Assembly: GCF_013122565.1 (NCBI RefSeq)
Contig: NZ_CP053258.1
Strand: one strand, 5' to 3'
DNA: 64,000 nucleotides
From: Escherichia coli
Lineage (GTDB): Bacteria; Pseudomonadota; Gammaproteobacteria; Enterobacterales; Enterobacteriaceae
In this document: piece after piece, positions 1-29,065 of the stretch
Position numbering within the stretch: position 1 is the stretch's first letter
Layout: each line of letters opens with the position of its first letter
Position numbers and translations under genes: made by a program
The notes under the pieces: model-generated
The model's database searches: none
Told to the model about the DNA's origin: nothing
Seen by the model: only the letters and a program-made list of their open reading frames with translations

Positions 1-2268
1 ATGGCCGTTAAAGCCTCCGGGCGTTTTGTCCCTCCGTCAGCATTTGCCGCAGGCACCGGTAAGACGTTTACCGGTGCTTATGCATGGAACGCGCCACGCG
101 AGGCCGTCGGGCGCGAAAGACCCCTTACACGTGACGAGATGCGTCAGGTGCAAGGTGTTTTATCCACGATTAACCGCCTGCCTTACTTTTTGCGCTCGCT
201 GTTTACTTCACGCTATGACTACATCCGGCGCAATAAAAGCCCGGTGCACGGGTTTTATTTCCTCACATCCACTTTTCAGCGTCGTTTATGGCCGCGCATT
301 GAGCGTGTGAATCAGCGCCATGAAATGAACACCGACGCGTCGTTGCTGTTTCTGGCAGAGCGTGATCACTATGCGCGCCTGCCGGGAATGAATGACAAGG
401 AGCTGAAAAAGTTTGCCGCCCGTATCTCATCGCAGCTTTTCATGATGTATGAGGAACTCAGCGATGCCTGGGTGGATGCGCATGGCGAAAAAGAATCACT
501 GTTTACGGATGAGGCTCAGGATCACCTGTATGGTCATGTTGCTGGCGCTGCACGAGCTTTCAATATTTCCCCTCTCTACTGGAAAAAATACCGTAAAAGA
601 CAGATGACCACGAGGCAGGCATATTCTGCCATTGCCCGTCTGTTTAACGATGAGTGGTGGACTCATCAGCTTAAAGGCCAGCGTATGCGCTGGCATGAAG
701 CGTTACTGATAGCTGTCGGGGAGGTCAATAAAGACCGTTCTCCTTATGCCAGTAAACACGCCATTCGTGATGTGCGTGCGCGCCGCCAGGCAAATCTGGA
801 ATTTCTTAAATCGTGTGACCTTGAAAACAGGGAAACCGGCGAGCGCATCGACCTTATCAGTAAGGTGATGGGCAGTATTTCTAATCCTGAAATTCGCCGG
901 ATGGAGCTGATGAACACCATTGCCGGTATTGAGCGTTACGCCGCTGCAGAGGGTGATGTGGGGATGTTTATCACGCTGACCGCGCCGTCAAAGTATCACC
1001 CGACACGTCAGGTAGGAAAAGGCGAAAGTAAAACCGTGCAGCTTAATCACGGCTGGAACGATGAGGCATTTAATCCAAAGGATGCGCAGCGTTATCTCTG
1101 CCGTATCTGGAGCCTGATGCGCACGGCATTCAAGGATAATGATTTGCAGGTCTACGGTTTGCGTGTCGTCGAGCCACACCACGACGGAACGCCGCACTGG
1201 CATATGATGCTTTTTTGTAATTCACGCCAGCGTAACCAGATTATCGAAATCATGCGTCGCTATGCGCTCAAAGAGGATGGCGACGAAAGAGGAGCCGCGC
1301 GAAACCGTTTTCAGGCAAAACACCTTAACCGGGGCGGTGCTGCGGGATATATCGCGAAATACATTTCAAAAAACATCGACGGCTATGCACTGGATGGTCA
1401 GCTCGATAACGACACCGGCAGGCCGCTGAAAGACACTGCAGCGGCTGTTACCGCATGGGCGTCAACGTGGCGCATCCCGCAATTTAAAACGGTTGGCCTG
1501 CCGACAATGGGGGCTTACCGTGAACTACGCAAATTGCCGCGCGGCGTCAGCATTGCTGATGAGTTTGACGAGCGCGTCGAGGCTGCACGCGCCGCCGCAG
1601 ACAGTGGTGATTTTGCGTTGTATATCAGCGCGCAGGGTGGGGCAAATGTCCCGCGCGATTGTCAGACTGTCAGAGTCGCCCGTAGCCCGTCGGATGAAGT
1701 TAACGAGTACGAGGAAGAAGTCGAGAGAGTGGTCGGCATTTACGCTCCGCATCTCGGCGCGCGTCATATTCATATCACCAGAACGACGGACTGGCGCATT
1801 GTGCCGAAAGTTCCGGTCGTTGAGCCTTTGACTTTAAAAAGCGGCATCGCCGCGCCTCGGAGTCCTGTCAATAACTGTGGAAAGTTCACCGGCAGTGATA
1901 CTTCGTTAACGGCTTCCACACCTTCTGAACATGCCGCAGCCGTGCTTAATCTGGTCGATGACGGTGTTATCGAATGGAATGACCCGGATGTCGTGAGGGC
2001 GCTCAGGGGGGCATTAAAACACGAACTGAGAACACCAAATCGTCAGCAAAGAAACGGAAGCCCGTTAAAACCGCATGAAATTGCGCCTTCGGCCAGACTG
2101 ACCCGGTCGGAACGAATGCAAATCCCCCGTATCCGCGTTGACCTTGGTCAGAACGGTATCAGGCCTCAGCGATGGGAGCTTGAGGCGCTGGCGCGTGGGG
2201 CAACCGTAAATTATGAGGGGGTAAACTTCAGGTATCCGGTAAATGATGAGTGGCCGGGATTTAATTAA
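1..2268 (+). CDS. A: P2 gpA-like replication initiation protein (rolling-circle nickase); may be 5'-complete or truncated by the window edge
   Basis: 755-aa ORF starting at base 1, immediately upstream of the cargo locus and cos as in P2, where gpA is about 761 aa. Confidence 0.8.
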   Translation: MAVKASGRFVPPSAFAAGTGKTFTGAYAWNAPREAVGRERPLTRDEMRQVQGVLSTINRLPYFLRSLFTSRYDYIRRNKSPVHGFYFLTSTFQRRLWPRIERVNQRHEMNTDASLLFLAERDHYARLPGMNDKELKKFAARISSQLFMMYEELSDAWVDAHGEKESLFTDEAQDHLYGHVAGAARAFNISPLYWKKYRKRQMTTRQAYSAIARLFNDEWWTHQLKGQRMRWHEALLIAVGEVNKDRSPYASKHAIRDVRARRQANLEFLKSCDLENRETGERIDLISKVMGSISNPEIRRMELMNTIAGIERYAAAEGDVGMFITLTAPSKYHPTRQVGKGESKTVQLNHGWNDEAFNPKDAQRYLCRIWSLMRTAFKDNDLQVYGLRVVEPHHDGTPHWHMMLFCNSRQRNQIIEIMRRYALKEDGDERGAARNRFQAKHLNRGGAAGYIAKYISKNIDGYALDGQLDNDTGRPLKDTAAAVTAWASTWRIPQFKTVGLPTMGAYRELRKLPRGVSIADEFDERVEAARAAADSGDFALYISAQGGANVPRDCQTVRVARSPSDEVNEYEEEVERVVGIYAPHLGARHIHITRTTDWRIVPKVPVVEPLTLKSGIAAPRSPVNNCGKFTGSDTSLTASTPSEHAAAVLNLVDDGVIEWNDPDVVRALRGALKHELRTPNRQQRNGSPLKPHEIAPSARLTRSERMQIPRIRVDLGQNGIRPQRWELEALARGATVNYEGVNFRYPVNDEWPGFN

Positions 2269-2515: not shown

Positions 2516-4735
2516 CTAAGCGGTAACGGTTTCCTCTTCCTCTTCGTCCATCATTTTCAAATAATGTTTTTCATCACCAGTCATACGAAAAATGGTTTTT
2601 AGTTGCTCCATATATTTCTCTGGAGATATATCTCCCATGTCTGTGATATTAACTGCATCTGAATGGGAACCTCTATTAATGTATCTATAAAATGCTCTAA
2701 AATCATTATTCTTATCATCGCTAGCAAGTTTATTTAACTCTGTCTGTAATGCATCCGTTCTATGAACAAATGCGAAGTAGTATTCCAGTATATTTCTCAT
2801 GATGTTAGGTATTATAACTTTATTTACCCTTCCATCCTTCGCATCTTTTAATACTTGCCATAGGGACTGGTATTCATTCTGAATGCTCTTTTTCTCTATT
2901 TCTGTAATTATGCTATATTCATTTTTTGTTACTCGTCCAAGATAATAATCACGCTTGAATGTTCTATCTTCTTTGCTTCTAGGAGCTAATTTGATAAGTT
3001 CATGAAAGAAATAAAGGTTATGTGTGAGTATTAATGTTTTCTTTACTGCTTTGTTATTGTTGATTATTTCATGGTGAATTATTGAAGCAATATCGTACAC
3101 ATAATTTTGAGAGAGGCTGGATATTGGATCATCAATAACGATAAATACATCTCGCATATCCGTATCATTCTTATCTGTCTTACCTTTACAGCATTCCAGA
3201 AAGTAGAGAAAGGTAATTAAAGTTTTTTCACCCTCGCTAAGAGATCTGTATACATCTTTATCTGTTGTGTTTTCAGAACGTGATATAATATATTTATCAT
3301 TGCTCTCAGTGTGTTTTTTTATGCTAAAACCATAAATTCCTAATAATTTTAGACGTTGATTTATAGAATCTATGGTTGCATCAATGTTAGATATTTGATC
3401 GCGTAGCTCTTTGATCTTTTTGCTATTGTTATCTCCTTGTTCTTTTATGGTATTTAATTCAAGTTGATATTGTTCATAAATGATTTTATAGTCATTCTCA
3501 TATTTTGAGAAAGCTTCAAACTCAGCGTTGCATAATTCTCTTATTGCTCCCCATATTTTGTAACGTATAGACTTTTCACTATCCTTAAATTGTTTGACTT
3601 TAATATTTATTTCTTTAATTCTATTGTTGTACTCTGCTATATTATCAACTACCTTTGCTTCAAGGTCGCTATTGGATTCCAAAATAATAGATATAGATGG
3701 GTTATTGATTTTATCTAACATCAATTTTAAGTTTTTGTTTGCTATTTCCTCTAGTAACGCTATATGAGATGATGTTATATCTTTTTCTTTTGAGGTGATT
3801 AATTCACAAGATGAAATCTCTTGTTTTATTTTTCTTAAATTATCTATGGTAGCGGATTCATAAGACGATCTGATAATGCGTATTTGGTCAACTTTCTTGG
3901 AGTAGCTATCATCAAAGATAGATTCAATTGCTTCTAAAAATTTGTCTTTAATAGTGTCTTCTTGGCAGAATGGGCAACATGTGCCATTTAAATATAATTC
4001 CTTCCCTTTTTTCACCCAGTCAAGGTTTTGAAGTTGTTTAATTGTTTCTGACAAATAGCTATTACTTGAGTCTATAATCGGAGTGGATAAAGATTCTTTA
4101 TCTTTTTCTGAAATGATATATTTTTCTAAAGGTGTAATTGATGCAGTGAATTTATCTTTGTTCTTTAAAAGAATACTATATTCTTGAGCAAGTGACTCGA
4201 TGTTAACGTCAGTGGTTTGAGGGGCTTTTTTAACTTGCTCATAAAATGATCTCTTGCTTCCTAACTGACCTTTCATCAAGTTCTTTAAGTCAGATGATCT
4301 AAAAGGTTCTGCTTTATTCCATATTAAATCAATATATTCATTTTCTTTATTGTTTTTATCTTTAATTAAACGCTCAATAACGTTTTTTTTATCTTTGTAT
4401 TTTGTAAGTAGGTCTTGTCTTATAGCTTCTTTTTCCAACAATTCTTTTTCAATGTCAGCATTTTCCTTACTTAAAGTGAATACTCCTTTTTGCTCTTTTG
4501 CATTATAAAAATTATCCTCAACAAACTTAGTATTATAAACCAATAGGCGAAAAGTATCTATGAAAGGACATTCGCATTCTTTGTAGTCCGTGTTATTTGG
4601 ATTATAGAAATAATTAGATATGGTTGATTTTCCACAACCGTTGTGACCATAAAGTATATTAATTTTTTTTGAGAGATTAAGAGTCGTGAAGCTATCTTTC
4701 TTATAGCTGGTTATATTCTTTAATTTAAGTTCCAT
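2516..4735 (-). CDS. Candidate antiphage/abortive-infection protein: split ABC/SMC-type ATPase with coiled-coil insert, CxxC motif and C-terminal HEPN-like domain (PrrC/RloC-like architecture, inferred)
   Basis: 739-aa ORF with ATG at 4733..4735 and GAGG-type RBS upstream. Walker A GHNGCGKST at residues 30-38; K/E-rich heptad-like region about 85-495 with CCPFC at 253-257; signature-like LSEGEK at 499-504; Walker B/D-loop VFIVIDDPISSLS at 530-542; H-loop LILTHN at 568-573; Rx6H (R684..H691) in the C-terminal ~150 aa. Much more AT-rich than the flanking phage genes. Sits at the P2 old/tin position. Confidence 0.8.
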   Translation of the reverse strand: MELKLKNITSYKKDSFTTLNLSKKINILYGHNGCGKSTISNYFYNPNNTDYKECECPFIDTFRLLVYNTKFVEDNFYNAKEQKGVFTLSKENADIEKELLEKEAIRQDLLTKYKDKKNVIERLIKDKNNKENEYIDLIWNKAEPFRSSDLKNLMKGQLGSKRSFYEQVKKAPQTTDVNIESLAQEYSILLKNKDKFTASITPLEKYIISEKDKESLSTPIIDSSNSYLSETIKQLQNLDWVKKGKELYLNGTCCPFCQEDTIKDKFLEAIESIFDDSYSKKVDQIRIIRSSYESATIDNLRKIKQEISSCELITSKEKDITSSHIALLEEIANKNLKLMLDKINNPSISIILESNSDLEAKVVDNIAEYNNRIKEINIKVKQFKDSEKSIRYKIWGAIRELCNAEFEAFSKYENDYKIIYEQYQLELNTIKEQGDNNSKKIKELRDQISNIDATIDSINQRLKLLGIYGFSIKKHTESNDKYIISRSENTTDKDVYRSLSEGEKTLITFLYFLECCKGKTDKNDTDMRDVFIVIDDPISSLSQNYVYDIASIIHHEIINNNKAVKKTLILTHNLYFFHELIKLAPRSKEDRTFKRDYYLGRVTKNEYSIITEIEKKSIQNEYQSLWQVLKDAKDGRVNKVIIPNIMRNILEYYFAFVHRTDALQTELNKLASDDKNNDFRAFYRYINRGSHSDAVNITDMGDISPEKYMEQLKTIFRMTGDEKHYLKMMDEEEEETVTA

Positions 4736-5065
4736 TTTAAAACCTCATCATTGCCAATGATATTGTATAAATATTTAAGCTGTTTAACATGAATTATTTT
4801 GCTAAACGATAAAGATCTACCTCAGAAGTTTACTTTGTTCAAGCAAAATCTTTTGTTCTAAGAGATATAAAAATTTTTATTAATAGTTTGATTTTTGTTC
4901 ATGGGATTTCCTTTTTTTATGTTTTTACAAAGTAATAACTATGCATGTATCAGGTGCATGGTTTTGCATGTGTCAAAGTTATGCGTCCTCATTGCTTTAC
5001 GTCACAGCTAGCGAGGATTCAACGTACTCATGCAACTGCATTAAAACCGCCCCATGAAGCGGGCG

Positions 5066-5084
5066 GGCGAGGCGGGGAAAGCAC
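5066..5084. other. P2-type cos cohesive-end sequence
   Basis: Exact 19-mer GGCGAGGCGGGGAAAGCAC, matching the P2 cohesive end from memory, located just past the stop of the portal gene Q as in P2. Confidence 0.6.
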
Positions 5085-5253
5085 TGCGCGCTGGCGGTGG
5101 TGCTGATTTTATTTTTTCAGCGTCTGAGCGCGTCTTGATGGCGTTTAGATTGTGCACCGGGGCGTTGGTGTGTCTGCGGGCTGTTTTGTGCGGTGGTGAG
5201 CGTGTGAGGGCGTGATGGCGGGGTGTAAAAAAGCCGCCCGCAGGCGGCGATGT

Positions 5254-6288
5254 TCAGCCGTTGTCAGTGTCCAGTGAGTAGTTTTTAAAGCGGATGACCT
5301 CCTGACCGAGCCAGCCGTTTATCTCGCGGATCCTGTCCTGTAACGGGATAAGCTCATTGCGGACAAAGACCTTTGCCACTTTCTCAATATCTCCCAGTGA
5401 CCCGACGTTCTCCGGCTTGCCGCCCATCAACTGAAAGGGGATACGGTGCGCGTCCAGCAGGTCAGCGGCGCTGGCTTTTTTGATATTAAAAAAATCGTCC
5501 TTCGTTGCCACTTCACTGAGCGGGATAATTTTAATGCCGTCAGCTTTCCCCTGCGGGGCATAGAGAAACAGATTTTTAAAGTTGTTGCGGCCTTTCGACT
5601 TAACCATGTTTTCGCGAAGCATTTCGATATCGTTGCGATCCTGCACGGCATCGGTGACGTACATGATGTATCCGGCATGAGCGCCGTTTTCGTAATACTT
5701 GCGGCGGAACAGCGTGGCCGACTCATTCAGCCAGGCAGAGTTAAGGGCGCTGAGATATTCCGGCAGGCCGTACAGCTCCTGATTAATATCAGGCTCCAGC
5801 AGATGAAACACGGAGCCGGGCGCGAAAGGTGTCGGCTCGTTGAAGGACGGCACCCACCAGTAAACATCCTCCTCCACGCCACGGCGGGTATATTTTGCCG
5901 GTGAGGTTTCCAGTCTGATGATCTTACCGGTGGTGCTGTAACGCTTTTCCAGAAACGCATTACCGAACACCAGAAAATCCAGCACAAAGCGGCTGAAATC
6001 CTGTTGCGAAAGCCACGGATGCGGGATAAATGTCGAGGCCAGAATATTGCGTTTGACGTAAATCGGGGAGCTGTGATGCACGGCAGCACGCAGGCTTTTT
6101 GCCAGACCGGTAAAGCTGACCGGCGGCTCATACCATCTGCTGTTACTGATGCACTCGACGTAATCCAGAATGTCACGGCGGTCGAGTACCGGCACCGGTT
6201 CGCCAAAGGTGAATGCCTCCATTTTCGGGGCGCTGGCGGTGATTGTTTTTGCCGCAGGTTGCGGTGTTTTCCCTTTTTTCTTGCTCAT
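5254..6288 (-). CDS. Q: Portal protein
   Basis: 344 aa, identical in length to P2 gpQ; leftward-transcribed next to the terminase gene and adjacent to cos. Confidence 0.9.
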   Translation of the reverse strand: MSKKKGKTPQPAAKTITASAPKMEAFTFGEPVPVLDRRDILDYVECISNSRWYEPPVSFTGLAKSLRAAVHHSSPIYVKRNILASTFIPHPWLSQQDFSRFVLDFLVFGNAFLEKRYSTTGKIIRLETSPAKYTRRGVEEDVYWWVPSFNEPTPFAPGSVFHLLEPDINQELYGLPEYLSALNSAWLNESATLFRRKYYENGAHAGYIMYVTDAVQDRNDIEMLRENMVKSKGRNNFKNLFLYAPQGKADGIKIIPLSEVATKDDFFNIKKASAADLLDAHRIPFQLMGGKPENVGSLGDIEKVAKVFVRNELIPLQDRIREINGWLGQEVIRFKNYSLDTDNG

Positions 6289-8090
6289 CAGTAAAACTCC
6301 AGAATGGTGGATGTCAGCGGGGTGCTGATACCGGCGGTGAGTGGCTCATTTAACAGGGCGTGCATGGTCGCCCAGGCGAGGTCGGCGTGGCTGGCTTCCT
6401 CGCTGCGGCTGGCCTCATAAGTGGCGCTGCGTCCGCTGCTGGTCATGGTCTTGCGGATAGCCATAAACGAGCTGGTGATGTCGGTGGCGCTGACGTCATA
6501 TTCCAGACAGCCACGGCGGATGACGTCTTTTGCCTTGAGCACCATTGCGGTTTTCATTTCCGGCGTGTAGCGGATATCGCGCGCGGCGGGATAGAACGAG
6601 CGCACGAGCTGGAACACGCCGACACCGAGGCCGGTGGCATCAATACCGATGTATTCGACGTTGTATTTTTCGGTGAGTTTGCGGATGGATTCAGCCTGGG
6701 TGGCAAAGTCCATGCCTTTCCACTGGTGACGCTCAAGTATTCTGAATTTGCCACCGGCCACCACCGGTGGTGCCAGCACCACGCATCCGGCGCTGTCGCC
6801 ACGGTGTGACGGGTCGTAACCAATCCATACCGGGCGGGAGCCGAACGGATTCGCGGCAAACGGCGCATAGTCTTCCCATTCTTCCAGCGTGTCGACCATG
6901 CAGCGTTGCAGCTCCTCGAACGGGAACACCGACGCCTTGTCGTCAACAAATTCACACATGAACAGGTTTTTAAAATCGTCGGCGCTGTTTTCACGTTTGA
7001 GCTGCTCAATGTCGAACAGCGTGCAGCCACCTTTCAGGGCGTCCTCAATGGTGACAATCTGCCGCCACTGGCCGTCCGCACAGAGAAGCCCACCGGCAAG
7101 GGCGTTATGACTGACGTCGATTTCCACGCGTTCGGCGGCGCTGGCGCGTCCCCGGTTAAACAGTTCACCCGACCAGAACGGGTAGGCGTCGTGCGCCAGC
7201 GTGGACGGGGTGGAGAAATAAGTCGAGCGCAGGTGACTTTGTGAGGCCATACCTGATGCCACCTTACGCAGTACCTGAAAATTCGGGATCCAGAAAATCT
7301 CGTCGACGTACAGGTCGCCGTTATGGCTCTGTGCGGTGTTGGAGTTGGTGCCGAGAAAAATCAGTTTTGCGCCGTTATTGCCCAGGACAATCGGGTCACC
7401 AGTCAGGTCAACGTCAACCAGCCGGGCAAAGGCGATGATGTATTCGCGGAACACATACGCCTGCGTTTTACTGGCCGACAGAAAAATCTGGTTATGACCG
7501 GTTTTCAGGGCGCGCAGCAGCGCCTCGCGGGAAAAATAAAACGTCGCGCCAATCTGGCGGGATTTCAGGATATCGCGGATGCGGTGCTCAAGCCCGGCGC
7601 GATACCAGTGCAACTGATATTCGAAAGACTGCTCAAAGAAAATCTGCTCCAGCTTTTCGATGGCCTCGTCACTGAAAAAATTCTTTTTCGGTTTGCGACG
7701 CCCGCCTTTGTTGCGGTTAGCGACGTTCGGATTAAGGTCTGCCTCGTTGCCGGTCTGACTGTAACGGTTGACCCGTGCCAGTCGTTCAATCTGGCGTCCC
7801 AGCAGGTCAATTTCCTTGAAGTCACCGCCGGTTTTCTGCGGTTTGATGATGAGCTGGGTCAGCCGCGCTTCCAGACTCATTTCGACACGGCTGATGGGGG
7901 CAACGCTGTCCCAGCCGTCGCGCTGTTTCCAGCTCTGCACCGTCGGGCGTTTCATCTGCAACATGGCGGCAATCTGCGGTACGGAAAACCCCTGCCAGTA
8001 CAGCAGCGCCGCCTGACGACGCGGGTCGTGTAAAAGAGTGGTGTCTGTGGTGATGGTCATGAATACCTCGCCGTGATGAATACACGGCAA
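6288..8090 (-). CDS. P: Terminase large subunit (ATPase/nuclease)
   Basis: 600-aa ORF overlapping the Q start by one base, divergent from the O N M operon as in P2. Confidence 0.9.
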   Translation of the reverse strand: MPCIHHGEVFMTITTDTTLLHDPRRQAALLYWQGFSVPQIAAMLQMKRPTVQSWKQRDGWDSVAPISRVEMSLEARLTQLIIKPQKTGGDFKEIDLLGRQIERLARVNRYSQTGNEADLNPNVANRNKGGRRKPKKNFFSDEAIEKLEQIFFEQSFEYQLHWYRAGLEHRIRDILKSRQIGATFYFSREALLRALKTGHNQIFLSASKTQAYVFREYIIAFARLVDVDLTGDPIVLGNNGAKLIFLGTNSNTAQSHNGDLYVDEIFWIPNFQVLRKVASGMASQSHLRSTYFSTPSTLAHDAYPFWSGELFNRGRASAAERVEIDVSHNALAGGLLCADGQWRQIVTIEDALKGGCTLFDIEQLKRENSADDFKNLFMCEFVDDKASVFPFEELQRCMVDTLEEWEDYAPFAANPFGSRPVWIGYDPSHRGDSAGCVVLAPPVVAGGKFRILERHQWKGMDFATQAESIRKLTEKYNVEYIGIDATGLGVGVFQLVRSFYPAARDIRYTPEMKTAMVLKAKDVIRRGCLEYDVSATDITSSFMAIRKTMTSSGRSATYEASRSEEASHADLAWATMHALLNEPLTAGISTPLTSTILEFY

Positions 8091-8233
8091 GGCTACTGAG
8101 TCGCGCCCCGCGATTCGCTAAGGTGCTGTTGTGTCAGTGATAAGCCATCCGGGACTGATGGCGGAGGATGCGCATCGTCGGGAAACTGATGCCGACATGT
8201 GACTCCTCTAATCACTATTCAGGACTCCTGACA

Positions 8234-9088
8234 ATGGCAAAAAAAGTCTCAAAATTCTTTCGTATCGGCGTTGAGGGTGACACCTGTGACGGGCGTGTCA
8301 TCAGTGCGCAGGATATTCAGGAAATGGCCGAAACCTTTGACCCGCGTGTCTATGGTTGCCGCATTAACCTGGAACATCTGCGCGGCATCCTGCCTGACGG
8401 TATTTTTAAGCGTTATGGCGATGTGGTCGAACTGAAGGCGGAAAAGATTGACGACGATTCGGCGCTGAAAGGCAAATGGGCGCTGTTTGCGAAAATCACC
8501 CCGACCGATGACCTTATCGCGATGAACAAGGCCGCGCAGAAAGTCTACACCTCAATGGAAATTCAGCCGAACTTTGCCAATACCGGCAAATGTTATCTGG
8601 TGGGGCTGGCCGTCACCGATGACCCGGCAAGCCTCGGCACGGAATACCTGGAATTCTGCCGCACGGCAAAACACAACCCCCTGAACCGCTTCAAATTAAG
8701 CCCTGAAAACCTGATTTCAGTGGCAACGCCTGTTGAGCTGGAATTTGAAGACCTGCCTGAAACCGTGTTCACCGCCCTGACCGAAAAGGTGAAATCCATT
8801 TTTGGCCGCAAACAGGCCAGCGATGACGCCCGTCTGAATGACGTGCATGAAGCGGTGACCGCTGTTGCTGAACATGTGCAGGAAAAACTGAGCGCCACTG
8901 AGCAGCGCCTCGCTGAGATGGAAACCGCCTTTTCCGCACTTAAGCAGGATGTGACTGACAGGGCGGATGAAACCAGCCAGGCATTCACCCGCCTGAAAAA
9001 CAGTCTCGACCACACCGAAAGTCTGACCCAGCAGCGCCGCAGCAAGGCCACCGGCGGTGGCGGTGACGCCCTGATGACGAACTGCTGA
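8234..9088 (+). CDS. O: Capsid scaffolding protein
   Basis: Start chosen at the internal ATG (MAKKVSKFFRIGVEG...), giving 284 aa as in P2 gpO; the track ORF extends upstream to 8168. Confidence 0.85.
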   Translation: MAKKVSKFFRIGVEGDTCDGRVISAQDIQEMAETFDPRVYGCRINLEHLRGILPDGIFKRYGDVVELKAEKIDDDSALKGKWALFAKITPTDDLIAMNKAAQKVYTSMEIQPNFANTGKCYLVGLAVTDDPASLGTEYLEFCRTAKHNPLNRFKLSPENLISVATPVELEFEDLPETVFTALTEKVKSIFGRKQASDDARLNDVHEAVTAVAEHVQEKLSATEQRLAEMETAFSALKQDVTDRADETSQAFTRLKNSLDHTESLTQQRRSKATGGGGDALMTNC

Positions 9089-9146
9089 CCGGCGTCAGTC
9101 AGTCCGGGAAAACCTTAACGATTAACCCTTAATTTCAGGAAAAACT

Positions 9147-10220
9147 ATGCGCCAGGAAACCCGCTTTAAATTTAATGCTTACCTGTCCCGTGTTGCCGAA
9201 CTGAACGGCATCGACGCCGGTGATGTGTCGAAAAAATTCACCGTTGAACCGTCGGTCACCCAGACCCTGATGAACACCATGCAGGAGTCCTCTGACTTTC
9301 TGACCCGCATCAACATTGTGCCGGTCAGCGAAATGAAAGGGGAAAAAATTGGCATCGGTGTCACCGGCTCCATCGCCAGCACCACCGACACCGCCGGTGG
9401 CACCGAGCGTCAGCCGAAGGACTTCTCGAAGCTGGCGTCTAACAAGTACGAATGCGACCAGGTTAACTTCGATTTTTATATCCGCTACAAAACGCTGGAC
9501 CTGTGGGCGCGTTATCAGGATTTCCAGCTCCGTATCCGTAACGCCATTATCAAACGCCAGTCCCTTGATTTCATCATGGCCGGTTTTAACGGCGTGAGGC
9601 GTGCCGAAACCTCTGACCGCCGCAGTAACCCGATGCTGCAGGATGTGGCGGTCGGCTGGCTGCAGAAATACCGCAATGAAGCCCCGGCGCGCGTGATGAG
9701 CAAGGTTACTGACGAGGAAAGTCACACGACCTCTGAGGTCATCCGCGTGGGTAAGGGCGGTGATTATGCCAGCCTCGATGCACTGGTGATGGATGCGACC
9801 AACAACCTGATTGAGCCGTGGTATCAGGAAGACCCTGACCTTGTGGTGATTGTGGGGCGTCAGCTACTGGCGGACAAGTATTTCCCCATCGTTAACAAGG
9901 AGCAGGACAACAGCGAAATGCTGGCCGCTGACGTCATCATCAGTCAGAAACGCATCGGTAACCTGCCGGCGGTACGCGTCCCGTACTTCCCGGCGGATGC
10001 GATGCTCATCACGAAGCTGGAAAACCTGTCCATCTACTACATGGATGACAGCCATCGCCGCGTGATTGAGGAAAACCCGAAACTCGACCGCGTGGAGAAC
10101 TACGAGTCAATGAACATTGATTACGTGGTGGAAGACTACGCCGCCGGTTGTCTGGTGGAAAAAATTAAGGTCGGTGATTTCTCCACACTGGCTAAAGCGA
10201 CCGCAGAGCCGGGAGCGTAA
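9147..10220 (+). CDS. N: Major capsid protein
   Basis: 357 aa, same length as P2 gpN; position between O and M. Confidence 0.9.
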   Translation: MRQETRFKFNAYLSRVAELNGIDAGDVSKKFTVEPSVTQTLMNTMQESSDFLTRINIVPVSEMKGEKIGIGVTGSIASTTDTAGGTERQPKDFSKLASNKYECDQVNFDFYIRYKTLDLWARYQDFQLRIRNAIIKRQSLDFIMAGFNGVRRAETSDRRSNPMLQDVAVGWLQKYRNEAPARVMSKVTDEESHTTSEVIRVGKGGDYASLDALVMDATNNLIEPWYQEDPDLVVIVGRQLLADKYFPIVNKEQDNSEMLAADVIISQKRIGNLPAVRVPYFPADAMLITKLENLSIYYMDDSHRRVIEENPKLDRVENYESMNIDYVVEDYAAGCLVEKIKVGDFSTLAKATAEPGA

Positions 10221-10223
10221 CCG

Positions 10224-10967
10224 ATGACGAGTCCCGCACAGCGCCACATGATGCGGGTCTCGGCAGCGATGACCGCGCAGCGGGAAGCCGCCCCGCTGCG
10301 ACATGCAACTGTCTATGAGCAGATGCTGGTTAAGCTCGCCGCAGACCAGCGCACACTGAAAGCGATTTATTCAAAAGAGCTGAAGGCCGCGAAAAAACGC
10401 GAACTGCTGCCGTTCTGGTTGCCGTGGGTGAACGGCGTGCTGGAGCAGGGCAAAGGTGCACAGGATGACATTCTGATGACGGTCATGCTGTGGCGTCTGG
10501 ATACCGGCGATATTGCCGGTGCGCTGGAGATTGCCCGTTATGCCCTGAAGTACGGTCTGACCATGCCGGGTAAACACCGCCGCACCCCGCCGTACATGTT
10601 CACCGAGGAGGTGGCGCTTGCGGCCATGCGCGCTCACGCTGCCGGTGAATCCGTGGATACCCGCCTGCTGACGGAGACCCTTGAACTGACCGCCACGGCT
10701 GACATGCCTGATGAAGTGCGCGCAAAGCTGCACAAAATCACCGGTCTGTTTCTGCGTGACGCTGGTGATGCCGCAGGGGCGCTGGCGCACCTGCAACGTG
10801 CGACACAGCTCGACTGTCAGGCAGGCGTCAAAAAAGAGATTGAACGACTGGAGCGGGAGCTGAAACCGAAGCCGGAGCCGCAGCCAAAAGCGGCCACCCG
10901 TACCCCGCGTAAGACCCGGAGCGTGACACCGGTAAAACGTGGACGCCCGAAAAAGAAAGCCAGTTAA
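10224..10967 (+). CDS. M: Terminase small subunit
   Basis: 247 aa, same length as P2 gpM; basic C-terminus. Confidence 0.85.
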   Translation: MTSPAQRHMMRVSAAMTAQREAAPLRHATVYEQMLVKLAADQRTLKAIYSKELKAAKKRELLPFWLPWVNGVLEQGKGAQDDILMTVMLWRLDTGDIAGALEIARYALKYGLTMPGKHRRTPPYMFTEEVALAAMRAHAAGESVDTRLLTETLELTATADMPDEVRAKLHKITGLFLRDAGDAAGALAHLQRATQLDCQAGVKKEIERLERELKPKPEPQPKAATRTPRKTRSVTPVKRGRPKKKAS

Positions 10968-11066
10968 CAACCGAATGCGCCCCGCGCCAGGGCGGCACGC
11001 CGGTCAGTGAGGGTGAATCACCTGACACTGCACCGGCGTCCACCGCCCGACTTTTCAGAGGTAGTC

Positions 11067-11576
11067 ATGATGACGCTGATTATTCCGCGAAAGGAGGCTC
11101 CCGTGTCCGGTGAGGGTACGGTGGTCATCCCGCAACCGGCAGGCGACGAGCCGGTGATTAAAAACACGTTCTTTTTTCCCGATATCGACCCGAAGCGCGT
11201 CCGGGAACGTATGCGCCTTGAGCAGACCGTCGCCCCCGCCCGTCTGCGTGAGGCCATCAAGTCAGGCATGGCGGAGACGAATGCGGAGCTGTACGAGTAC
11301 CGCGAACAGAAAATTGCCGCCGGTTTTACGCGTCTGGCGGACGTTCCGGCGGACGACATCGACGGTGAAAGCATCAGAGTTTTTTACTACGAGCGCGCCG
11401 TGTGTGCGATGGCGACCGCGTCGCTTTATGAGCGTTATCGCGGCGTGGATGCCAGTGCGAAAGGCGACAAGAAGGCTGACAGCATTGACAGCACCATCGA
11501 TGAACTGTGGCGGGATATGCGCTGGGCAGTGGCGCGCATCCAGGACAAGCCGCGCTGCATCGTGAGTCAAATCTGA
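11067..11576 (+). CDS. L: Head completion/stabilisation protein
   Basis: Internal start MMTLIIPRKE gives 169 aa as in P2 gpL; the track ORF extends to 11007. Confidence 0.8.
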   Translation: MMTLIIPRKEAPVSGEGTVVIPQPAGDEPVIKNTFFFPDIDPKRVRERMRLEQTVAPARLREAIKSGMAETNAELYEYREQKIAAGFTRLADVPADDIDGESIRVFYYERAVCAMATASLYERYRGVDASAKGDKKADSIDSTIDELWRDMRWAVARIQDKPRCIVSQI

Positions 11577-11779
11577 TGAAGACCTTTGCGCTACAGGGCG
11601 ACACGCTCGACGCCATTTGTGTCCGGTATTACGGGCGCACTGAGGGCGTGGTCGAGGCTGTGCTCGCCGCAAATCCGGGACTGGCTGAACTGGGGGCGGT
11701 GCTGCCACATGGCACCGCCGTCGAACTGCCCGACGTTCAGACCGCGCCCGTGGCTGAAACTGTCAATCTGTGGGAGTAA
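11576..11779 (+). CDS. X: Tail protein X
   Basis: Start MKTFALQGDTLD gives 67 aa as in P2 gpX; its start overlaps the L stop. Confidence 0.8.
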   Translation: MKTFALQGDTLDAICVRYYGRTEGVVEAVLAANPGLAELGAVLPHGTAVELPDVQTAPVAETVNLWE

Positions 11780-11782
11780 CGC

Positions 11783-12064
11783 ATGACAGCAGAAGAAAAA
11801 AGCGTCCTGTCGCTTTTCATGATTGGGGTGCTGATTGTTGTCGGCAAGGTGCTTGCCGGTGGTGAACCCATCACCCCGCGTCTGTTTATCGGGCGCATGT
11901 TGCTCGGTGGTTTTGTCTCGATGGTTGCCGGTGTTGTTCTGGTGCAGTTTCCTGACCTGTCACTGCCTGCGGTGTGCGGCATCGGCTCCATGCTGGGTAT
12001 CGCCGGTTATCAGGTGATTGAGATTGCCATTCAGCGCCGCTTTAAGGGCAGGGGGAAACCGTAA
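11783..12064 (+). CDS. Y: Holin
   Basis: 93 aa with hydrophobic helices, directly upstream of the endolysin gene as in P2. Confidence 0.85.
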   Translation: MTAEEKSVLSLFMIGVLIVVGKVLAGGEPITPRLFIGRMLLGGFVSMVAGVVLVQFPDLSLPAVCGIGSMLGIAGYQVIEIAIQRRFKGRGKP

Positions 12065-12561
12065 TGCCGGTAATTAACACGCATCAGAATATCGCGGCCT
12101 TTCTCGACATGCTGGCAGTGTCCGAAGGGACGGCGAATCATCCGCTGACGAAAAACCGGGGCTATGACGTGATAGTCACCGGACTGGACGGGAAGCCGGA
12201 AGTTTTCACCGACTACAGTGACCACCCGTTCGCGCATGGCCGACCGGCGAAGGTGTTTAACCGTCGCGGTGAAAAATCCACGGCCTCCGGTCGCTATCAG
12301 CAGCTTTACCTGTTCTGGCCGCACTACCGCAAACAGCTTGCCCTGCCGGATTTCAGTCCGCTGTCACAGGACAGGCTCGCCATTCAGTTGATCCGCGAAC
12401 GCGGTGCACTGGATGACATCCGGGCGGGACGCATTGAGCGCGCCATTTCACGCTGTCGCAATATCTGGGCGTCCCTGCCGGGTGCCGGTTACGGTCAGCG
12501 TGAGCATTCACTGGAAAAACTGGTCACCGTCTGGCGTACCGCTGGCGGCGTACCGGCTTAA
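12064..12561 (+). CDS. K: Endolysin (lysozyme)
   Basis: 165 aa, same length as P2 gpK; follows the holin. Confidence 0.85.
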   Translation: MPVINTHQNIAAFLDMLAVSEGTANHPLTKNRGYDVIVTGLDGKPEVFTDYSDHPFAHGRPAKVFNRRGEKSTASGRYQQLYLFWPHYRKQLALPDFSPLSQDRLAIQLIRERGALDDIRAGRIERAISRCRNIWASLPGAGYGQREHSLEKLVTVWRTAGGVPA

Positions 12562-12575
12562 ACGGAGTAAACACC

Positions 12576-13001
12576 ATGAAGAAATTATCCCTTTCACTGA
12601 TGCTGAACGTGTCGCTGGCGCTGATGCTGGCACTGTCCCTGATTTACCCGCAGAGCGTGGCCGTCAATTTTGTCGCCGCCTGGGCGATTCTGGCGACGGT
12701 TATCTGTGTGGTTGCCGGTGGTGTCGGCGTGTATGCCACTGAGTATGTGCTGGAACGCTACGGGCGGGAGCTGCCGCCGGAATCGCTGGCCGTGAAGATT
12801 GTCACGTCGCTGTTTTTGCAGCCGGTGCCGTGGCGCAGGCGGGCAGCGGCTCTGGTGGTGATGGTGGCGACATTTAGCTCGCTGGTCGCTGCCGGGTGGA
12901 TTTTTACTGCGCTGATTTACCTCGTGGCGTCGGTGTTCTTCCGGCTGATACGTACGGCCTGCCGTCAGCGTTTTGAGGGGCGGGAACCATGTCAAAGCTG
13001 A
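12576..13001 (+). CDS. lysA: Lysis timing/accessory membrane protein
   Basis: 141 aa, very hydrophobic with multiple TM helices; matches P2 LysA length and position. Confidence 0.8.
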   Translation: MKKLSLSLMLNVSLALMLALSLIYPQSVAVNFVAAWAILATVICVVAGGVGVYATEYVLERYGRELPPESLAVKIVTSLFLQPVPWRRRAAALVVMVATFSSLVAAGWIFTALIYLVASVFFRLIRTACRQRFEGREPCQS

Positions 13002-13414
13002 TGATTGTGCTGGTTGTATTGTTATCACTGGCGGTGGCGGGGCTGTTTCTGGTGAAGCATGAAAATGCCAGCCTGCGCACCTCACTGGACAGGGCGAACA
13101 GCGTCGCCAGCGGGCAGCAGACGACCATCACCATGCTGAAAAATCAGCTTCATGTTGCCCTCACCAGGGCAGACAAAAACGAGCTGGCGCAGGTGGCACT
13201 GCGTCAGGAACTGGAGAACGCCGCGAAGCGTGAAGCACTGCGCGAGAAAACCATCACGAGGTTACTTAATGAAAACGAGGATTTTCGCCGCTGGTATGGC
13301 GCTGACCTGCCTGATGCTGTGCGCCGGTTGCACCAGCGTCCGGCCTGCACTGACGCCAGTGATTGTCGCCAACGCCTGCCCGAAAGTGAGCCTTTGCCCG
13401 ATGCCGGGCAGTGA
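12989..13414 (+). CDS. lysB: Spanin inner-membrane subunit (Rz-like)
   Basis: 141 aa with N-terminal TM segment and coiled-coil-like body; matches P2 LysB. Confidence 0.8.
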   Translation: MSKLMIVLVVLLSLAVAGLFLVKHENASLRTSLDRANSVASGQQTTITMLKNQLHVALTRADKNELAQVALRQELENAAKREALREKTITRLLNENEDFRRWYGADLPDAVRRLHQRPACTDASDCRQRLPESEPLPDAGQ

Positions 13415-13559
13415 CCCGCAGAAGAACGGCGATTTAAGTGCCGATATCCGGCAGCTTGAGAACGCGCTGGCACGCTGTGCCAGCCAGGTAAAAATGATTA
13501 AACACTGTCAGGACGAAAACGATGCTCAAACCCGACAGCCTGCGCAGGGCGCTGACTGA
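13269..13559 (+). CDS. lysC: Spanin outer-membrane lipoprotein (Rz1-like), starts inside lysB in the +1 frame
   Basis: Internal start MKTRIFAAGMALTCLMLCAGC with lipobox LCAGC; 96 aa as for P2 LysC; begins within lysB and ends 145 nt after it. Confidence 0.7.
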   Translation: MKTRIFAAGMALTCLMLCAGCTSVRPALTPVIVANACPKVSLCPMPGSDPQKNGDLSADIRQLENALARCASQVKMIKHCQDENDAQTRQPAQGAD

Positions 13560-13989
13560 TGCCGTCACGGTGCTGAAAACCAGTCCCGAGATGCTGCGGA
13601 TATTCGTGGATAACGGGAGTATTGCCTCCACACTGGCGACGTCGTTGTCATTCGAAAAGCGTTACACGCTCAATGTGATTGTGACCGACTTTACCGGTGA
13701 TTTTGACCTGCTCATTGTGCCGGTGCTGGCGTGGCTGCGGGAAAATCAGCCCGACATCATGACCACTGACGAAGGTCAGAAAAAGGGCTTCACGTTTTAT
13801 GCAGACATCAACAATGACAGCAGCTTTGATATCAGCATCAGCCTGATGCTGACCGAGCGCACGCTGGTCAGTGAGGTTGACGGTGCGCTGCATGTGAAGA
13901 ATATCCCGGAACCTCCGCCGCCGGAGCCGGTTACCCGCCCGATGGAGCTGTATATCAATGGCGAACTGGTGAGCAAGTGGGATGAATGA
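13522..13989 (+). CDS. R: Tail completion protein
   Basis: 155 aa, same length and position as P2 gpR. Confidence 0.85.
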   Translation: MLKPDSLRRALTDAVTVLKTSPEMLRIFVDNGSIASTLATSLSFEKRYTLNVIVTDFTGDFDLLIVPVLAWLRENQPDIMTTDEGQKKGFTFYADINNDSSFDISISLMLTERTLVSEVDGALHVKNIPEPPPPEPVTRPMELYINGELVSKWDE

Positions 13990-14434
13990 GTTTAAGCGTT
14001 TTGAAGACCGGCTGACCGGACTGATTGAGTCGCTGTCACCGTCAGGGCGTCGACGACTGAGTGCCGAACTGGCGAAACGTCTGCGTCAGAGTCAGCAGCG
14101 TCGGGTGATGGCACAGAAAGCCCCGGACGGCACACCCTACGCGCCACGCCAGCAGCAGAGCGCCAGAAAAAAGACCGGTCGTGTTAAGCGAAAAATGTTT
14201 GCGAAACTTATCACCAGTCGCTTTTTGCATATCCGCGCCAGCCCGGAACAGGCATCAATGGAATTTTACGGCGGGAAGTCGCCGAAAATCGCCAGTGTGC
14301 ATCAGTTCGGTCTGTCGGAAGAAAACCGGAAAGACGGTAAGAAAATTGATTATCCGGCGCGTCCTCTGCTCGGCTTTACCGGTGAGGATGTGCAGATGAT
14401 TGAAGAGATTATTCTGGCTCACCTCGACCGTTAG
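13982..14434 (+). CDS. S: Tail completion protein
   Basis: 150 aa, same length and position as P2 gpS. Confidence 0.85.
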   Translation: MNEFKRFEDRLTGLIESLSPSGRRRLSAELAKRLRQSQQRRVMAQKAPDGTPYAPRQQQSARKKTGRVKRKMFAKLITSRFLHIRASPEQASMEFYGGKSPKIASVHQFGLSEENRKDGKKIDYPARPLLGFTGEDVQMIEEIILAHLDR

Positions 14435-14500
14435 TTGTGCCATTCCTGACACCTCATCGTCACATTGCCGCCGGTATGACCCGGCGGCATCCTTCCCGTT

Positions 14501-15136
14501 ATGAACACTCTCGCAAATATCCAGGAACTCGCGCGCGCACTGCGCAATATGATTCGCACCGGCCTTGTCGTCGAAACCGACCTTAACGCCGGTCGCTGCC
14601 GAGTGCAGACCGGCGGCATGTGCACTGACTGGCTTCAGTGGCTGACTCATCGCGCCGGGCGTTCGCGCACATGGTGGGCACCTTCCGTGGGGGAACAGGT
14701 GCTGATTCTGGCCGTGGGCGGTGAACTTGACACGGCGTTTGTTCTGCCGGGGATTTATTCCGGCGATAACCCCGCGCCGTCTGCGTCGGCGGATGCCCTG
14801 CATATCCGTTTCCCTGACGGGGCGGTGATTGAGTATGAACCCGAAACCAGTGCACTCACGGTAAGCGGAATTAAAACGGTCAGCGTGACGGCTTCTGATT
14901 CTGTTACTGCCACGGTGCCGGTGGTCATGGTGAAAGCGTCAACCCGCATCACCCTGGACACACCGGAGGTGGTCTGCACCAACAGGCTGATTACCGGCAC
15001 GCTGGAAGTGCAGAAGGGCGGGACGATGCGCGGCAACATTGAACACACCGGCGGTGAACTCTCATCAAACGGTAAGGTACTGCATACCCACAAACACCCC
15101 GGCGACAGCGGCGGCACAACCGGGAGTCCTTTATGA
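14501..15136 (+). CDS. V: Baseplate spike/central hub protein
   Basis: 211 aa, same length as P2 gpV; first gene of the V W J I H G operon. Confidence 0.85.
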   Translation: MNTLANIQELARALRNMIRTGLVVETDLNAGRCRVQTGGMCTDWLQWLTHRAGRSRTWWAPSVGEQVLILAVGGELDTAFVLPGIYSGDNPAPSASADALHIRFPDGAVIEYEPETSALTVSGIKTVSVTASDSVTATVPVVMVKASTRITLDTPEVVCTNRLITGTLEVQKGGTMRGNIEHTGGELSSNGKVLHTHKHPGDSGGTTGSPL

Positions 15137-15480
15137 CAGCTCGTTATCTCGGAATGAATCGCAGTAATGGCCTGACTGTCACTGACCTTGAGCATATCAG
15201 CCAGAGTATCGGCGATATCCTGCGTACACCGGTCGGCTCACGGGTGATGCGTCGTGATTACGGCTCGTTGCTGGCATCAATGATTGACCAGCCGCAGACC
15301 CCGGCGCTTGAGTTGCAGATTAAGGTCGCCTGTTACATGGCGGTGCTGAAATGGGAACCCCGCGTCACCCTGTCATCCGTCACCACGGCGCGCAGTTTTG
15401 ACGGGCGAATGACGGTCACGTTAACCGGCCAGCACAACGACACCGGCCAGCCACTTTCGTTAACCATCCCTGTGAGTTGA
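15133..15480 (+). CDS. W: Baseplate wedge protein (gp25-like)
   Basis: 115 aa, same as P2 gpW; start overlaps the V stop. Confidence 0.85.
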   Translation: MTARYLGMNRSNGLTVTDLEHISQSIGDILRTPVGSRVMRRDYGSLLASMIDQPQTPALELQIKVACYMAVLKWEPRVTLSSVTTARSFDGRMTVTLTGQHNDTGQPLSLTIPVS

Positions 15481-15484
15481 AACC

Positions 15485-16393
15485 ATGCCGATTATCGACC
15501 TGAACCAGCTACCCGCACCGGATGTGGTCGAGGAGCTGGACTTTGAAACCATTCTCGCCGAACGCAAGGCGACACTGATTTCCCTTTACCCGGAAGACCA
15601 GCAGGAGGCGGTCGCCCGTACCCTGACACTGGAATCTGAGCCTCTCGTCAAACTGCTGGAGGAAAATGCTTATCGTGAGCTTATCTGGCGTCAGCGTGTG
15701 AATGAGGCCGCACGGGCGGTGATGCTGGCTTGTGCCGCCGGTAATGACCTTGATGTGATTGGTGCCAATTACAACACCACGCGCCTGATTATCACCCCGG
15801 CAGATGATTCGACTATCCCGCCGACACCGGCAGTGATGGAGTCTGACACCGATTATCGTCTGCGTATTCAGCAGGCGTTTGAGGGCTTAAGCGTCGCCGG
15901 GTCGGTGGGAGCCTATCAGTATCATGGTCGCAGTGCTGACGGGCGTGTCGCGGATATTTCTGTCACCAGTCCGTCTCCGGCCTGCGTCACCATCTCTGTG
16001 CTGTCACGTGAAAATAACGGTGTTGCATCCGAAGACCTGCTGGCCGTGGTGCGTAACGCCCTTAATGGCGAGGACGTCAGGCCGGTGGCCGACCGCGTGA
16101 CCGTGCAGTCTGCCGCCATCGTTGAATACCAGATAAACGCCACGCTGTATCTTTACCCTGGTCCCGAAAGCGAACCCATTCGCGCTGCCGCCGTGAAAAA
16201 ACTGGAAGCGTATATCACGGCACAGCACCGGCTGGGGCGCGACATCCGTCTGTCTGCCATTTATGCCGCTTTGCATGTGGAAGGCGTGCAGCGTGTCGAA
16301 CTGGCTGCACCGCTGGCCGACATCGTGCTCAACAATACGCAGGCGTCTTTCTGTACCGAATACCGCGTCGTGACCGGAGGCTCGGATGAGTGA
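15485..16393 (+). CDS. J: Baseplate wedge protein
   Basis: 302 aa, same as P2 gpJ. Confidence 0.85.
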   Translation: MPIIDLNQLPAPDVVEELDFETILAERKATLISLYPEDQQEAVARTLTLESEPLVKLLEENAYRELIWRQRVNEAARAVMLACAAGNDLDVIGANYNTTRLIITPADDSTIPPTPAVMESDTDYRLRIQQAFEGLSVAGSVGAYQYHGRSADGRVADISVTSPSPACVTISVLSRENNGVASEDLLAVVRNALNGEDVRPVADRVTVQSAAIVEYQINATLYLYPGPESEPIRAAAVKKLEAYITAQHRLGRDIRLSAIYAALHVEGVQRVELAAPLADIVLNNTQASFCTEYRVVTGGSDE

Positions 16394-16997
16394 TTCGCGA
16401 CTGCTGCCGACCGGCTCATCACCGCTTGAAGTCGCCGCCGCAAAAGCCTGTGCGGAAATTGAAAAAACGCCGGTCAGTATTCGTGAGCTGTGGAACCCGG
16501 ATACCTGTCCGGCAAATCTGCTGCCGTGGCTGGCGTGGTCATTTTCGGTTGACCGCTGGGATGATAAGTGGCCGGAAGCGACAAAACGCGCTGTTATCCG
16601 CGATGCGTATTTCATTCACTGCCATAAGGGCACTATAGGCGCAATCCGGCGTGTGGTGGAGCCGCTCGGCTATCTGATTGAGGTAAGGGAGTGGTGGCAG
16701 CTCAACGAGGAGCCGGGGACGTTCCGTATCGTTGTTGGTGTGCTTGAGCAGGGTATTACCGAGGAAATGTATCAGGAGCTGGAGCGCCTCGTTGCTGATG
16801 CAAAACCGGCAAGCCGCCATCTGACGGGACTGGCTATCAGCTTAAGTACAACCGGCAACATTTTTGCCGGTGCGGGATGCTATCACGGCGACGCCCTGAC
16901 GGTTTATCCCTACACCCCGGAGGCCATTATTGTCGGAGGGGATTATTTCCCGGCCTCGGCCATTCATTTAATTGATAACCTGAGAGTAAACGCATGA
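16386..16997 (+). CDS. I: Baseplate protein
   Basis: 203-aa ORF in the gpI position (P2 gpI is 176 aa, so the true start may be internal). Confidence 0.75.
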   Translation: MSDSRLLPTGSSPLEVAAAKACAEIEKTPVSIRELWNPDTCPANLLPWLAWSFSVDRWDDKWPEATKRAVIRDAYFIHCHKGTIGAIRRVVEPLGYLIEVREWWQLNEEPGTFRIVVGVLEQGITEEMYQELERLVADAKPASRHLTGLAISLSTTGNIFAGAGCYHGDALTVYPYTPEAIIVGGDYFPASAIHLIDNLRVNA

Positions 16998-18331: not shown

Positions 18332-18933
18332 TGGATTACGCCGTATTAAATAACGAGTTTATCGCCACCCAGGCAGGAAATATTACTGTTTATAACTATG
18401 ATGGTGAAACGCGTGAATATATTTCTACATCAACTGAATATCTCGCTGTCGGCGTCGGTATTCCGGCATGTTCTTGTTTGGATGCACCAGGTACACATAA
18501 AGCTGGTTATGCAATCTGTCGCTCTGTAGATTTAAATTCATGGGAATATGTGCCAGACCATCGCGGTGAAATCGTCTATAGCACCGAAACAGGAGAATCG
18601 AAAGAAATCACAGCTCCGGGTGATTATCCTGAAAATACAACCACTATCGCCCCGTTAACGCCATACGATGAATGGAATGGTGAGAAATGGGTGACAGATA
18701 CTGAGGCACAGCATAGTGCCGCAGTAGACGCGGCAGAAGCACAGCGCCAGTCGCTGATTGATGCTGCAATGGCTTCCATCAGTCTGATTCAACTGAAATT
18801 ACGGGCCGGGCGGAAGCTGACGCAGCCAGAAAACACCCGACTTAACGCCGTGCTGGATTACATTGACGCGGTGACGGCAACAGATACCAGCACCGCACCG
18901 GATGTCATCTGGCCTGAACTGCCGGAGGCGTAG
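18331..18933 (+). CDS. G: Tail fibre assembly chaperone (expressed orientation)
   Basis: 200 aa, gpG position; C-terminal motif TSTAPDVIWPELPE typical of tail fibre assembly proteins. Confidence 0.8.
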   Translation: MDYAVLNNEFIATQAGNITVYNYDGETREYISTSTEYLAVGVGIPACSCLDAPGTHKAGYAICRSVDLNSWEYVPDHRGEIVYSTETGESKEITAPGDYPENTTTIAPLTPYDEWNGEKWVTDTEAQHSAAVDAAEAQRQSLIDAAMASISLIQLKLRAGRKLTQPENTRLNAVLDYIDAVTATDTSTAPDVIWPELPEA

Positions 18934-19345: not shown

Positions 19346-19347
19346 TT

Positions 19348-19746: not shown

Positions 19747-19767
19747 CTCCGGTTTTTATTCAGGGGG

Positions 19768-20367: not shown

Positions 20368-20426
20368 CCTGACATCTCCGGCACAACTGAAAATATCACT
20401 CACCCATTAACCACGGAGTTAAACGG

Positions 20427-21617: not shown

Positions 21618-21629
21618 GGAGCCTGACCG

Positions 21630-22148: not shown

Positions 22149-22204
22149 TTTTCATCCGGTCAGCCTGGCTGACCGGTTAACCCCGATTCAGAAGTGAGAA
22201 AACC

Positions 22205-25072: not shown

Positions 25073-25086
25073 GGAGGTGACGAAAA

Positions 25087-26729: not shown

Positions 26730-26811
26730 TGTGTTTTATTTTATCTGTTTGTTTTATAAGGATAAATTAACTAAAATGGCAACATCAACAAAACCGGAAG
26801 AGGTGCTCGCG

Positions 26812-29064: not shown

Positions 29065-29065
29065 A

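Follow-up and report, generated by a model that had tools for sequence, protein, structure and literature searches.

A P2-type cos site as the probable packaging site of a P2-like prophage beside yegQ in Escherichia coli

The Escherichia coli sequence analyzed here (64,000 nucleotides; hereafter, the window) opens with gene A of a P2-like prophage and runs through its right end into the chromosome (Table 1). Downstream of the gpA gene lies a single accessory gene, encoding a 739-aa ATPase, followed by the cos region and then by Q and P, which diverge from O-N-M-L, such that the cognate terminase and portal genes stand beside cos; lysis, tail, and ogr genes complete the rightward series. Beyond attR, the window continues with yegQ, parDE-like genes, yegP, baeRS, and mdtDCBA, on to the colanic acid genes. 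The ParD/ParE-like toxin-antitoxin pair (28768-29413, minus strand) sits between yegQ and yegP and is read as two uninterrupted ORFs, its antitoxin being annotated as frameshifted in the closest relative, NZ_OZ197100. The remaining prophage components (int, C, cox, B, orf80-83, and attL) lie beyond the window, and their state was read from that relative.

Table 1. Features of the prophage and its cos region, in window coordinates (offsets are given relative to the cut)
Feature	Coordinates	Strand	Basis
gpA replication endonuclease (window begins with its first codon)	1-2268	+	96.6% identical to P2 A; Pfam Phage_GPA
ori nick region within A	1844-1874	+	0/31 mismatches to P2
Hotspot cargo, 739-aa AAA_13/RloC-like ATPase	2516-4735	-	Pfam AAA_13 2e-102; PADLOC PDC-S06 4e-253
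Distal TGCAT boxes at -124, -111, and -101	4942-4969 (starts 4942, 4955, 4965)	+	P2/P4/186 comparison
Conserved cos core, ~-37 to +26	5029-5091		ATGCAACTGCATTAAAACCGCCCC-ATGA-AGCGGGCG / 19-mer / TGCGCGC
Proximal TGCAA/TGCAT boxes at -35 and -29	5031-5041 (starts 5031, 5037)	+	P2/P4/186 comparison
G+C hairpin abutting the cut, terminator-like	5047-5066	-	CCGCCC-N8-GGGCGG, then TTTTAATGCA
cosN equivalent, 19-nt P2 cohesive end	5066-5084	+	unique exact match, identical to P2 cosL/cosR
Hairpin (5088-5103) plus T-run right of the cohesive end, terminator-like	5088-5113	+	conserved in P2
tQ terminator of the P-Q operon	5227-5248	-	0/22 mismatches to annotated P2 tQ
gpQ portal	5254-6288	-	98.5% identical to P2 Q over 343/344 aa; Pfam Phage_portal
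gpP terminase large subunit	6288-8060	-	99.8% identical to P2 P, 590 aa; Pfam Terminase_5/6N/6C
Ogr activator site common to divergent late promoters pP/pO	8124-8154	+	0/31 mismatches to P2 3057-3087
Head genes O (scaffold), N (major capsid), M, L (head completion)	8234-11576	+	98.3-99.3% identical to P2, full length
M, terminase small/endonuclease subunit	10224-10967	+	gpM 98.4% identical to P2; Pfam Phage_term_smal
X, then lysis genes Y (holin), K (endolysin), lysA, lysB, lysC	11576-13559	+	90.6-100% identical to P2, full length
Tail genes R S V W J I, fiber module, FI FII E/E' T U D, and ogr	13522-27030	+	P2 protein comparison
Alternative H/G-type fiber module with invertible segment and invertase	16994-20367		inverted repeats; annotation of near-identical genome
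ogr late activator	26812-27030	+	comparison with P2
attR core AAAAAATAAGCCCGTGTAAGGGAGATTA, prophage right end, then yegQ	27133-27160	+	27/28 versus P2 attP core

The cohesive end reads GGCGAGGCGGGGAAAGCAC and has no second match in the window, on either strand, even when up to 3 mismatches are allowed; shuffled versions of the window contain a mean of 0.04 such matches, and by our own arithmetic the expectation for an exact chance match is about 5e-7 for 2 × 64 kb. In the P2 record (NC_001895), both annotated sites, cosL (1-19) and cosR (33575-33593), have this sequence, 19/19 against the window, and PMC3931495 prints the same sequence for the cohesive end (19 nt, 5'-extruding) of P2-related phages. 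The first base of the linear records of phages fiAA91-ss (which carries an annotated cosL), S164, and P24A7b aligns to window position 5066. The 19-mer stands in the canonical position, 170 bp from the stop codon of the portal gene Q, with P as the next gene. These results bear out the preliminary description, which had recognized an exact, single-copy P2-type cohesive end next to portal/terminase genes, had assigned the prophage on this basis to the P2 packaging family (an assignment that the P2 cohesive end and the cognate terminase and portal support), and had proposed a comparison with the published P2 cos as a check: the P2 19-mer is the same and not a different one. That the 19-mer arose by chance and plays no part in packaging has a negligible probability, being contradicted by the 19/19 match, the conserved flanks, and the cognate genes; we rejected this reading on the uniqueness and shuffle counts together with the genomic context. 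Taking the cut polarity from the annotation of the phage 186 cos and from PMC3931495, we would place the nicks at 5065/5066 (top strand) and 5084/5085 (bottom strand), which would yield 5' protruding ends.

The cohesive end is embedded in a longer conserved core. Placed side by side, the joined ends of P2, P4, 186, and the window share ...(A/G)TGCA(A)CTGCATTAAAACCG(C/A)CCC-loop-AAG(C/T)GGGC(G/A) / cohesive end / (T/C)GCGCGC, and the core of the window departs from that of P2 by a single substitution in the hairpin loop, at a position that also varies among P2, P4, and 186. Judged by its sequence, this core corresponds to the “55-bp core” common to P2, P4, and 186 (Ziermann and Calendar 1990, as cited in PMC3931495). 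The hairpin to the left of the cut belongs to the core, its stem being kept and its loop being variable in P2, P4, and 186. To see how far conservation extends, we scanned IMG/VR with a P2/186-type cos pattern and obtained 120 loci (87 with a P2-type 19-mer, 29 with a 186-type 19-mer, and 4 hybrids), from which 118 distinct flanks were compared without gaps. Column conservation is 0.9 to 1.0 from about -37 to +26 and drops to the left of about -37, as it does to the right of about +26 in non-P2 elements. The two terminator-like hairpins flank the cohesive end on opposite strands, and transcription entering cos from either side would cross the 19-mer and then stop just past it.

Beyond the core, TGCA(T/A) boxes recur in P2, P4, and 186 at identical offsets but with unrelated intervening sequence. 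Among 107 distinct IMG/VR flanks, the boxes at -124, -111, -101, -35, and -29 are present at the exact offset in 45, 67, 76, 68, and 105, respectively, against a background of 0.019 per position, with a hypervariable intervening spacer (-95 to -40) that falls into 72 clusters at 70% identity. The window thus holds every conserved element, core and boxes, of the cos architecture of P2, P4, and 186. By analogy with lambda cos, the distal TGCAT boxes may form a recognition array for terminase. A role of the boxes as the promoter of the cargo gene was rejected as the main explanation: their positions are kept in P4 and 186, where the neighboring genes face the opposite way. According to the P2 record, the old-tin mRNA starts ~150 bp from the cut, so that the corresponding promoter would overlap the boxes.

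Four known cos sites offer points of comparison. (i) The cos of P2 shares with that of the window the 19-mer, the core (bar the one loop base), an identical tQ, and the position between an accessory-gene hotspot and Q/P, the terminase and portal proteins being 98 to 99.8% identical; it differs in the spacer from the distal TGCAT boxes to the core, which is unrelated (homology starts at window 5037), in a 15-bp variable patch at about +85 to +99 (window 5151-5165), and in its cargo, old/tin/orf91 in P2 versus the AAA_13 gene here. (ii) The cos of P4 (NC_001609) has the same 19-mer and core and likewise carries TGCAT boxes at -124, -111, and -101; its -35/-29 motif, GCAACTGCATT, is that of the window and thus closer than that of P2, and a defense hotspot likewise adjoins it. 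Unlike the prophage, P4 encodes neither a terminase nor structural proteins, and rightward of the cohesive end its sequence is unrelated after GCGCGC. (iii) The cos of 186 (NC_001317) has the same architecture with the same box positions, but its 19-mer differs at 2 positions (GGCGTGGCGGGGAAAGCAT), and the LexA-controlled tum SOS module that lies close to its cos and makes 186 inducible is absent here. (iv) In lambda, cos (cosQ-cosN-cosB) consists of a nicking site that has, on one side, repeated short elements for the small terminase subunit. The likeness to the window lies in this combination of a nicking site with one-sided repeats, the TGCAT boxes being putative counterparts of the lambda elements by analogy; lambda differs in its 12-nt (versus 19-nt) ends, in its unrelated sequence and proteins, and in its preferred substrate, which is concatemeric, whereas that of P2 and P4 is the closed circular monomer.

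The late region is, for the most part, that of P2. DNA homology is collinear at 95 to 97% and breaks only at three known accessory loci: at old/tin/orf91, where one gene stands in its place; at orf30, which is absent from this prophage; and at H-G-fun(Z), which is exchanged for another fiber module. All essential P2 late genes, as well as ogr, are full length and free of frameshifts, with the exception of H and G, which are replaced. The products of R, S, V, W, J, FI, FII, E, T, U, D, and ogr are 97 to 100% identical to those of P2, with lower values for lysC (90.6%) and I (82%); H matches P2 at 39% over its N-terminal half only, and P2 G finds no match in the window. Regulatory and recombination sites are similarly preserved: the E/E' slip site has 0/31 mismatches to P2, the ogr terminator is identical, and the Int P arm and IHF site have 0/28 and 1/34 mismatches, respectively. 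The full set of head, tail, and lysis genes that the preliminary description had credited to this prophage therefore stands as regards the essential genes, which are full length, but not as regards the fiber genes H and G, which are not those of P2 and have been replaced by a complete module.

Two late promoters deviate from those of P2. No P2-like pV activator site is recognizable in the S-V region, and the pF activator site is P2-like in its right half only, with P2 homology resuming in the middle of the site (window 20347, corresponding to P2 17572). Activation of the late tail genes is assumed here by analogy with other P2-like phages. The S-V intergenic region (14435-14500) measures 66 bp, orf30 being absent, and a recombination junction falls inside the regulatory site pF (20330-20370).

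The exchanged fiber module comprises 27-nt inverted repeats with an AAACC..GGTTT-type core (17808-17834 and 19692-19718), minus-strand genes for alternative fiber-tip and assembly proteins (18905-19746), and a gene encoding a recombinase/invertase (19768-20367). This arrangement suggests an invertible fiber segment capable of host-range switching, a capacity that P2 itself is without.

For the early region, we turned to NZ_OZ197100, which matches the window better than any other of 5,426 complete E. coli genomes (99.9% identity over 8.2 kb). Its int, C, cox, B, and orf80-83 show 95 to 100% protein identity to P2 (100% for C and Cox), its attL core is exact, and its attL-attR unit measures 30,805 bp, within the range of the deposited phages of the P2-like family (~28.9 to 33.8 kb). 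At ~25066-25083 of this genome, the GGGG run of the 19-mer has one G fewer than in the window; this loss is probably a homopolymer assembly error, given that several genes are “frameshifted” in the same record. At ~25150-25160, the genome carries a different 13-bp patch from that in the window (5151-5165, ~85 to 100 bp right of the cut), a stretch that is poorly conserved among P2-like phages generally.

Our reading is that a complete P2-like (Peduovirus-type) prophage beside yegQ, where annotation places ogrK, has its cos packaging site here; we assign this reading a probability of roughly 85%. The competing reading is a cryptic or defective prophage, in which cos would be an intact-looking but unused relic and the lesion would lie in the early region, a late promoter, or the fiber module. 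Each of these places offers some room for it, the early region not being covered by the window, the activator sites of pV and pF differing from those of P2, and H/G having been replaced; moreover, this chromosomal site is known to harbor P2 remnants, such as the one in K-12, to which the name ogrK goes back. Weighing against a relic are late genes that, where they have a P2 counterpart, are full length, mostly 95 to 100% identical (lysC and I being the lower values), and without frameshifts; key cis sites identical to those of P2; and a nearest genome in which the early region is complete and neither att core is missing. In addition, near-identical prophages, with the same arrangement including the AAA_13 gene, occur in 67 complete E. 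coli genomes, and similar genomes have been deposited as phages. With late genes of full length and cis sites identical to those of P2, we judged a degraded prophage to be unlikely.

Whether a complete prophage is also an inducible one is a separate matter. P2 is the prototype of a noninducible temperate phage, with a repressor that lacks a RecA cleavage site, whereas its 186-type relatives undergo SOS induction through the LexA-controlled tum, situated just upstream of cos. The suggestion in the preliminary description that this prophage could be inducible fares poorly against the present results: the C repressor of NZ_OZ197100 is 100% identical to that of P2, and no Tum/Orf97 homolog was found in the window or in the NZ_OZ197100 prophage (best E-value, 0.03 to 0.04 over 25 aa). 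Given the repressor of the relative and the lack of tum, immunity in this prophage is most likely of the P2 kind, which would leave the prophage not SOS inducible; release would be expected to occur only spontaneously or through derepression by a P4-type antirepressor (E/epsilon). Induction by mitomycin C or UV in the manner of 186 has a precedent in the P2-like prophage of E. coli HS, which is SOS induced through tum, and the immunity region of the present prophage lies outside the window; with the near-identical full prophage lacking tum/orf97, its repressor matching P2 C, and the cos-proximal slot that houses the tum module in 186 being occupied by the AAA_13 gene alone, we regard SOS inducibility as very unlikely.

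The content of this slot places the locus within a known hotspot. The gpA-cos-gpQ interval of P2-like phages has been described as an anti-phage hotspot (Rousset et al. 2022, PMC9122126), and in the parts of that paper drawn on here the interval is like that of the window, with variable cargo from gpA to cos/gpQ and no difference found. The window has defense-type domains in just this position, making its cargo a candidate defense gene. Read by eye, the cargo protein shows RloC-like features: Walker A (GHNGCGKST) and Walker B (VIDDP) motifs, the signature LSEGE, and CPFC within a long helical insert. Its C terminus is PrrC-like (PADLOC), with an R-x3-E...H stretch. It is 100% identical to WP_021520307 as annotated in NZ_OZ197100. 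Table S5A of Rousset et al. 2022 (PMC9122126) enters WP_021520307 as “AAA_13” and curates a homolog as “RloC-like,” and the portions of the paper drawn on here hold no mention of anti-phage activity for WP_021520307 itself. On the map, the gene falls between attL and attR and within the cos-to-cos unit; it would close the right end of the virion DNA, with 331 bp left to the terminus, and would accordingly be copackaged with the phage DNA. The earlier proposal that the defense candidate would be transferred with the phage thus agrees with the predicted map, with the published P2 hotspot, and with the listing of the protein in Table S5A. The AAA_13 cargo was found in one IMG/VR contig (the locus L079 below); at the level of megablast, none of the 50,697 phage records on deposit has it.

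By homology to P2 and P4, packaging of this prophage would proceed as follows. Upon derepression, Int and Cox would excise the ~30.8-kb element as a circle, and gpA would nick ori, leading to replication and monomeric circles. What terminase (gpM plus gpP) would recognize in cos is the conserved core, probably together with the position-locked TGCAT boxes toward the right end; packaging in P2 and P4 is known to start from closed circular monomers that are cut at cos. Nicking of the two strands 19 nt apart, at the positions given above, would produce the 5' protruding ends, and the DNA would be threaded via the gpQ portal into the gpN capsid. Gene order in the virion would be cos-Q-P-O...D-ogr-att-int-C-cox-B-A, with the AAA_13 gene last before the right end; after injection, the ends would anneal and be ligated, and the genome would recircularize.

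The cos of the window is an ordinary, already known feature. A 71-bp core (window 5025-5095) occurs in 2,161 of 5,426 complete E. coli genomes (~40%), at 2,965 places, and is at least 99% identical in 261 records; P2-like matches to the 8.2-kb region are present in 2,299 complete E. coli genomes. The site matters little beyond annotation, where it defines the two termini that a virion genome would have. It also makes the AAA_13/RloC-like gene phage-borne cargo of a packageable unit rather than a chromosomal gene. P4-like satellites, which have the same cos, could potentially use this prophage as their helper. All of these implications match published accounts of P2 and its cos-adjacent hotspot.

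The distal flank of cos invites a further, more speculative proposal. In P2/186/P4-type elements generally, the functional cos might reach ~125 bp toward the right end, as position-locked TGCAT boxes separated by a free spacer, with each hotspot cassette bringing its own distal half of cos and being exchanged by crossover within the cos core. We consider this scheme, which is drawn from sequence comparison, to be rather unlikely; if it is true and not already described, it would supply a concrete mechanism for turnover of the cos-adjacent hotspot. A role of cos in promoting cassette exchange is voiced as speculation in Rousset et al. 2022 (PMC9122126), and the codivergence of distal flank and cargo described next fits that speculation.

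Measured from the cut, homology of the window to most other P2-like phages starts between about -42 and -35. Four of the 120 cos-bearing IMG/VR loci (L079, L026, L102, and L046) have an AAA_13 homolog beside cos, with protein identities to that of the window of 100%, 72%, 65%, and 52%, respectively, the matches in L079 (484 aa aligned) and L026 (105 aa aligned) ending at the contig edge. In the same order, the distal cos flank (-130 to -37; window 4936-5029) is 100%, 20%, 57%, and 43% identical to that of the window. Set beside each other, the flank and cargo identities of these four loci are only suggestive of a distal cos flank that travels and diverges with its AAA_13 cargo.
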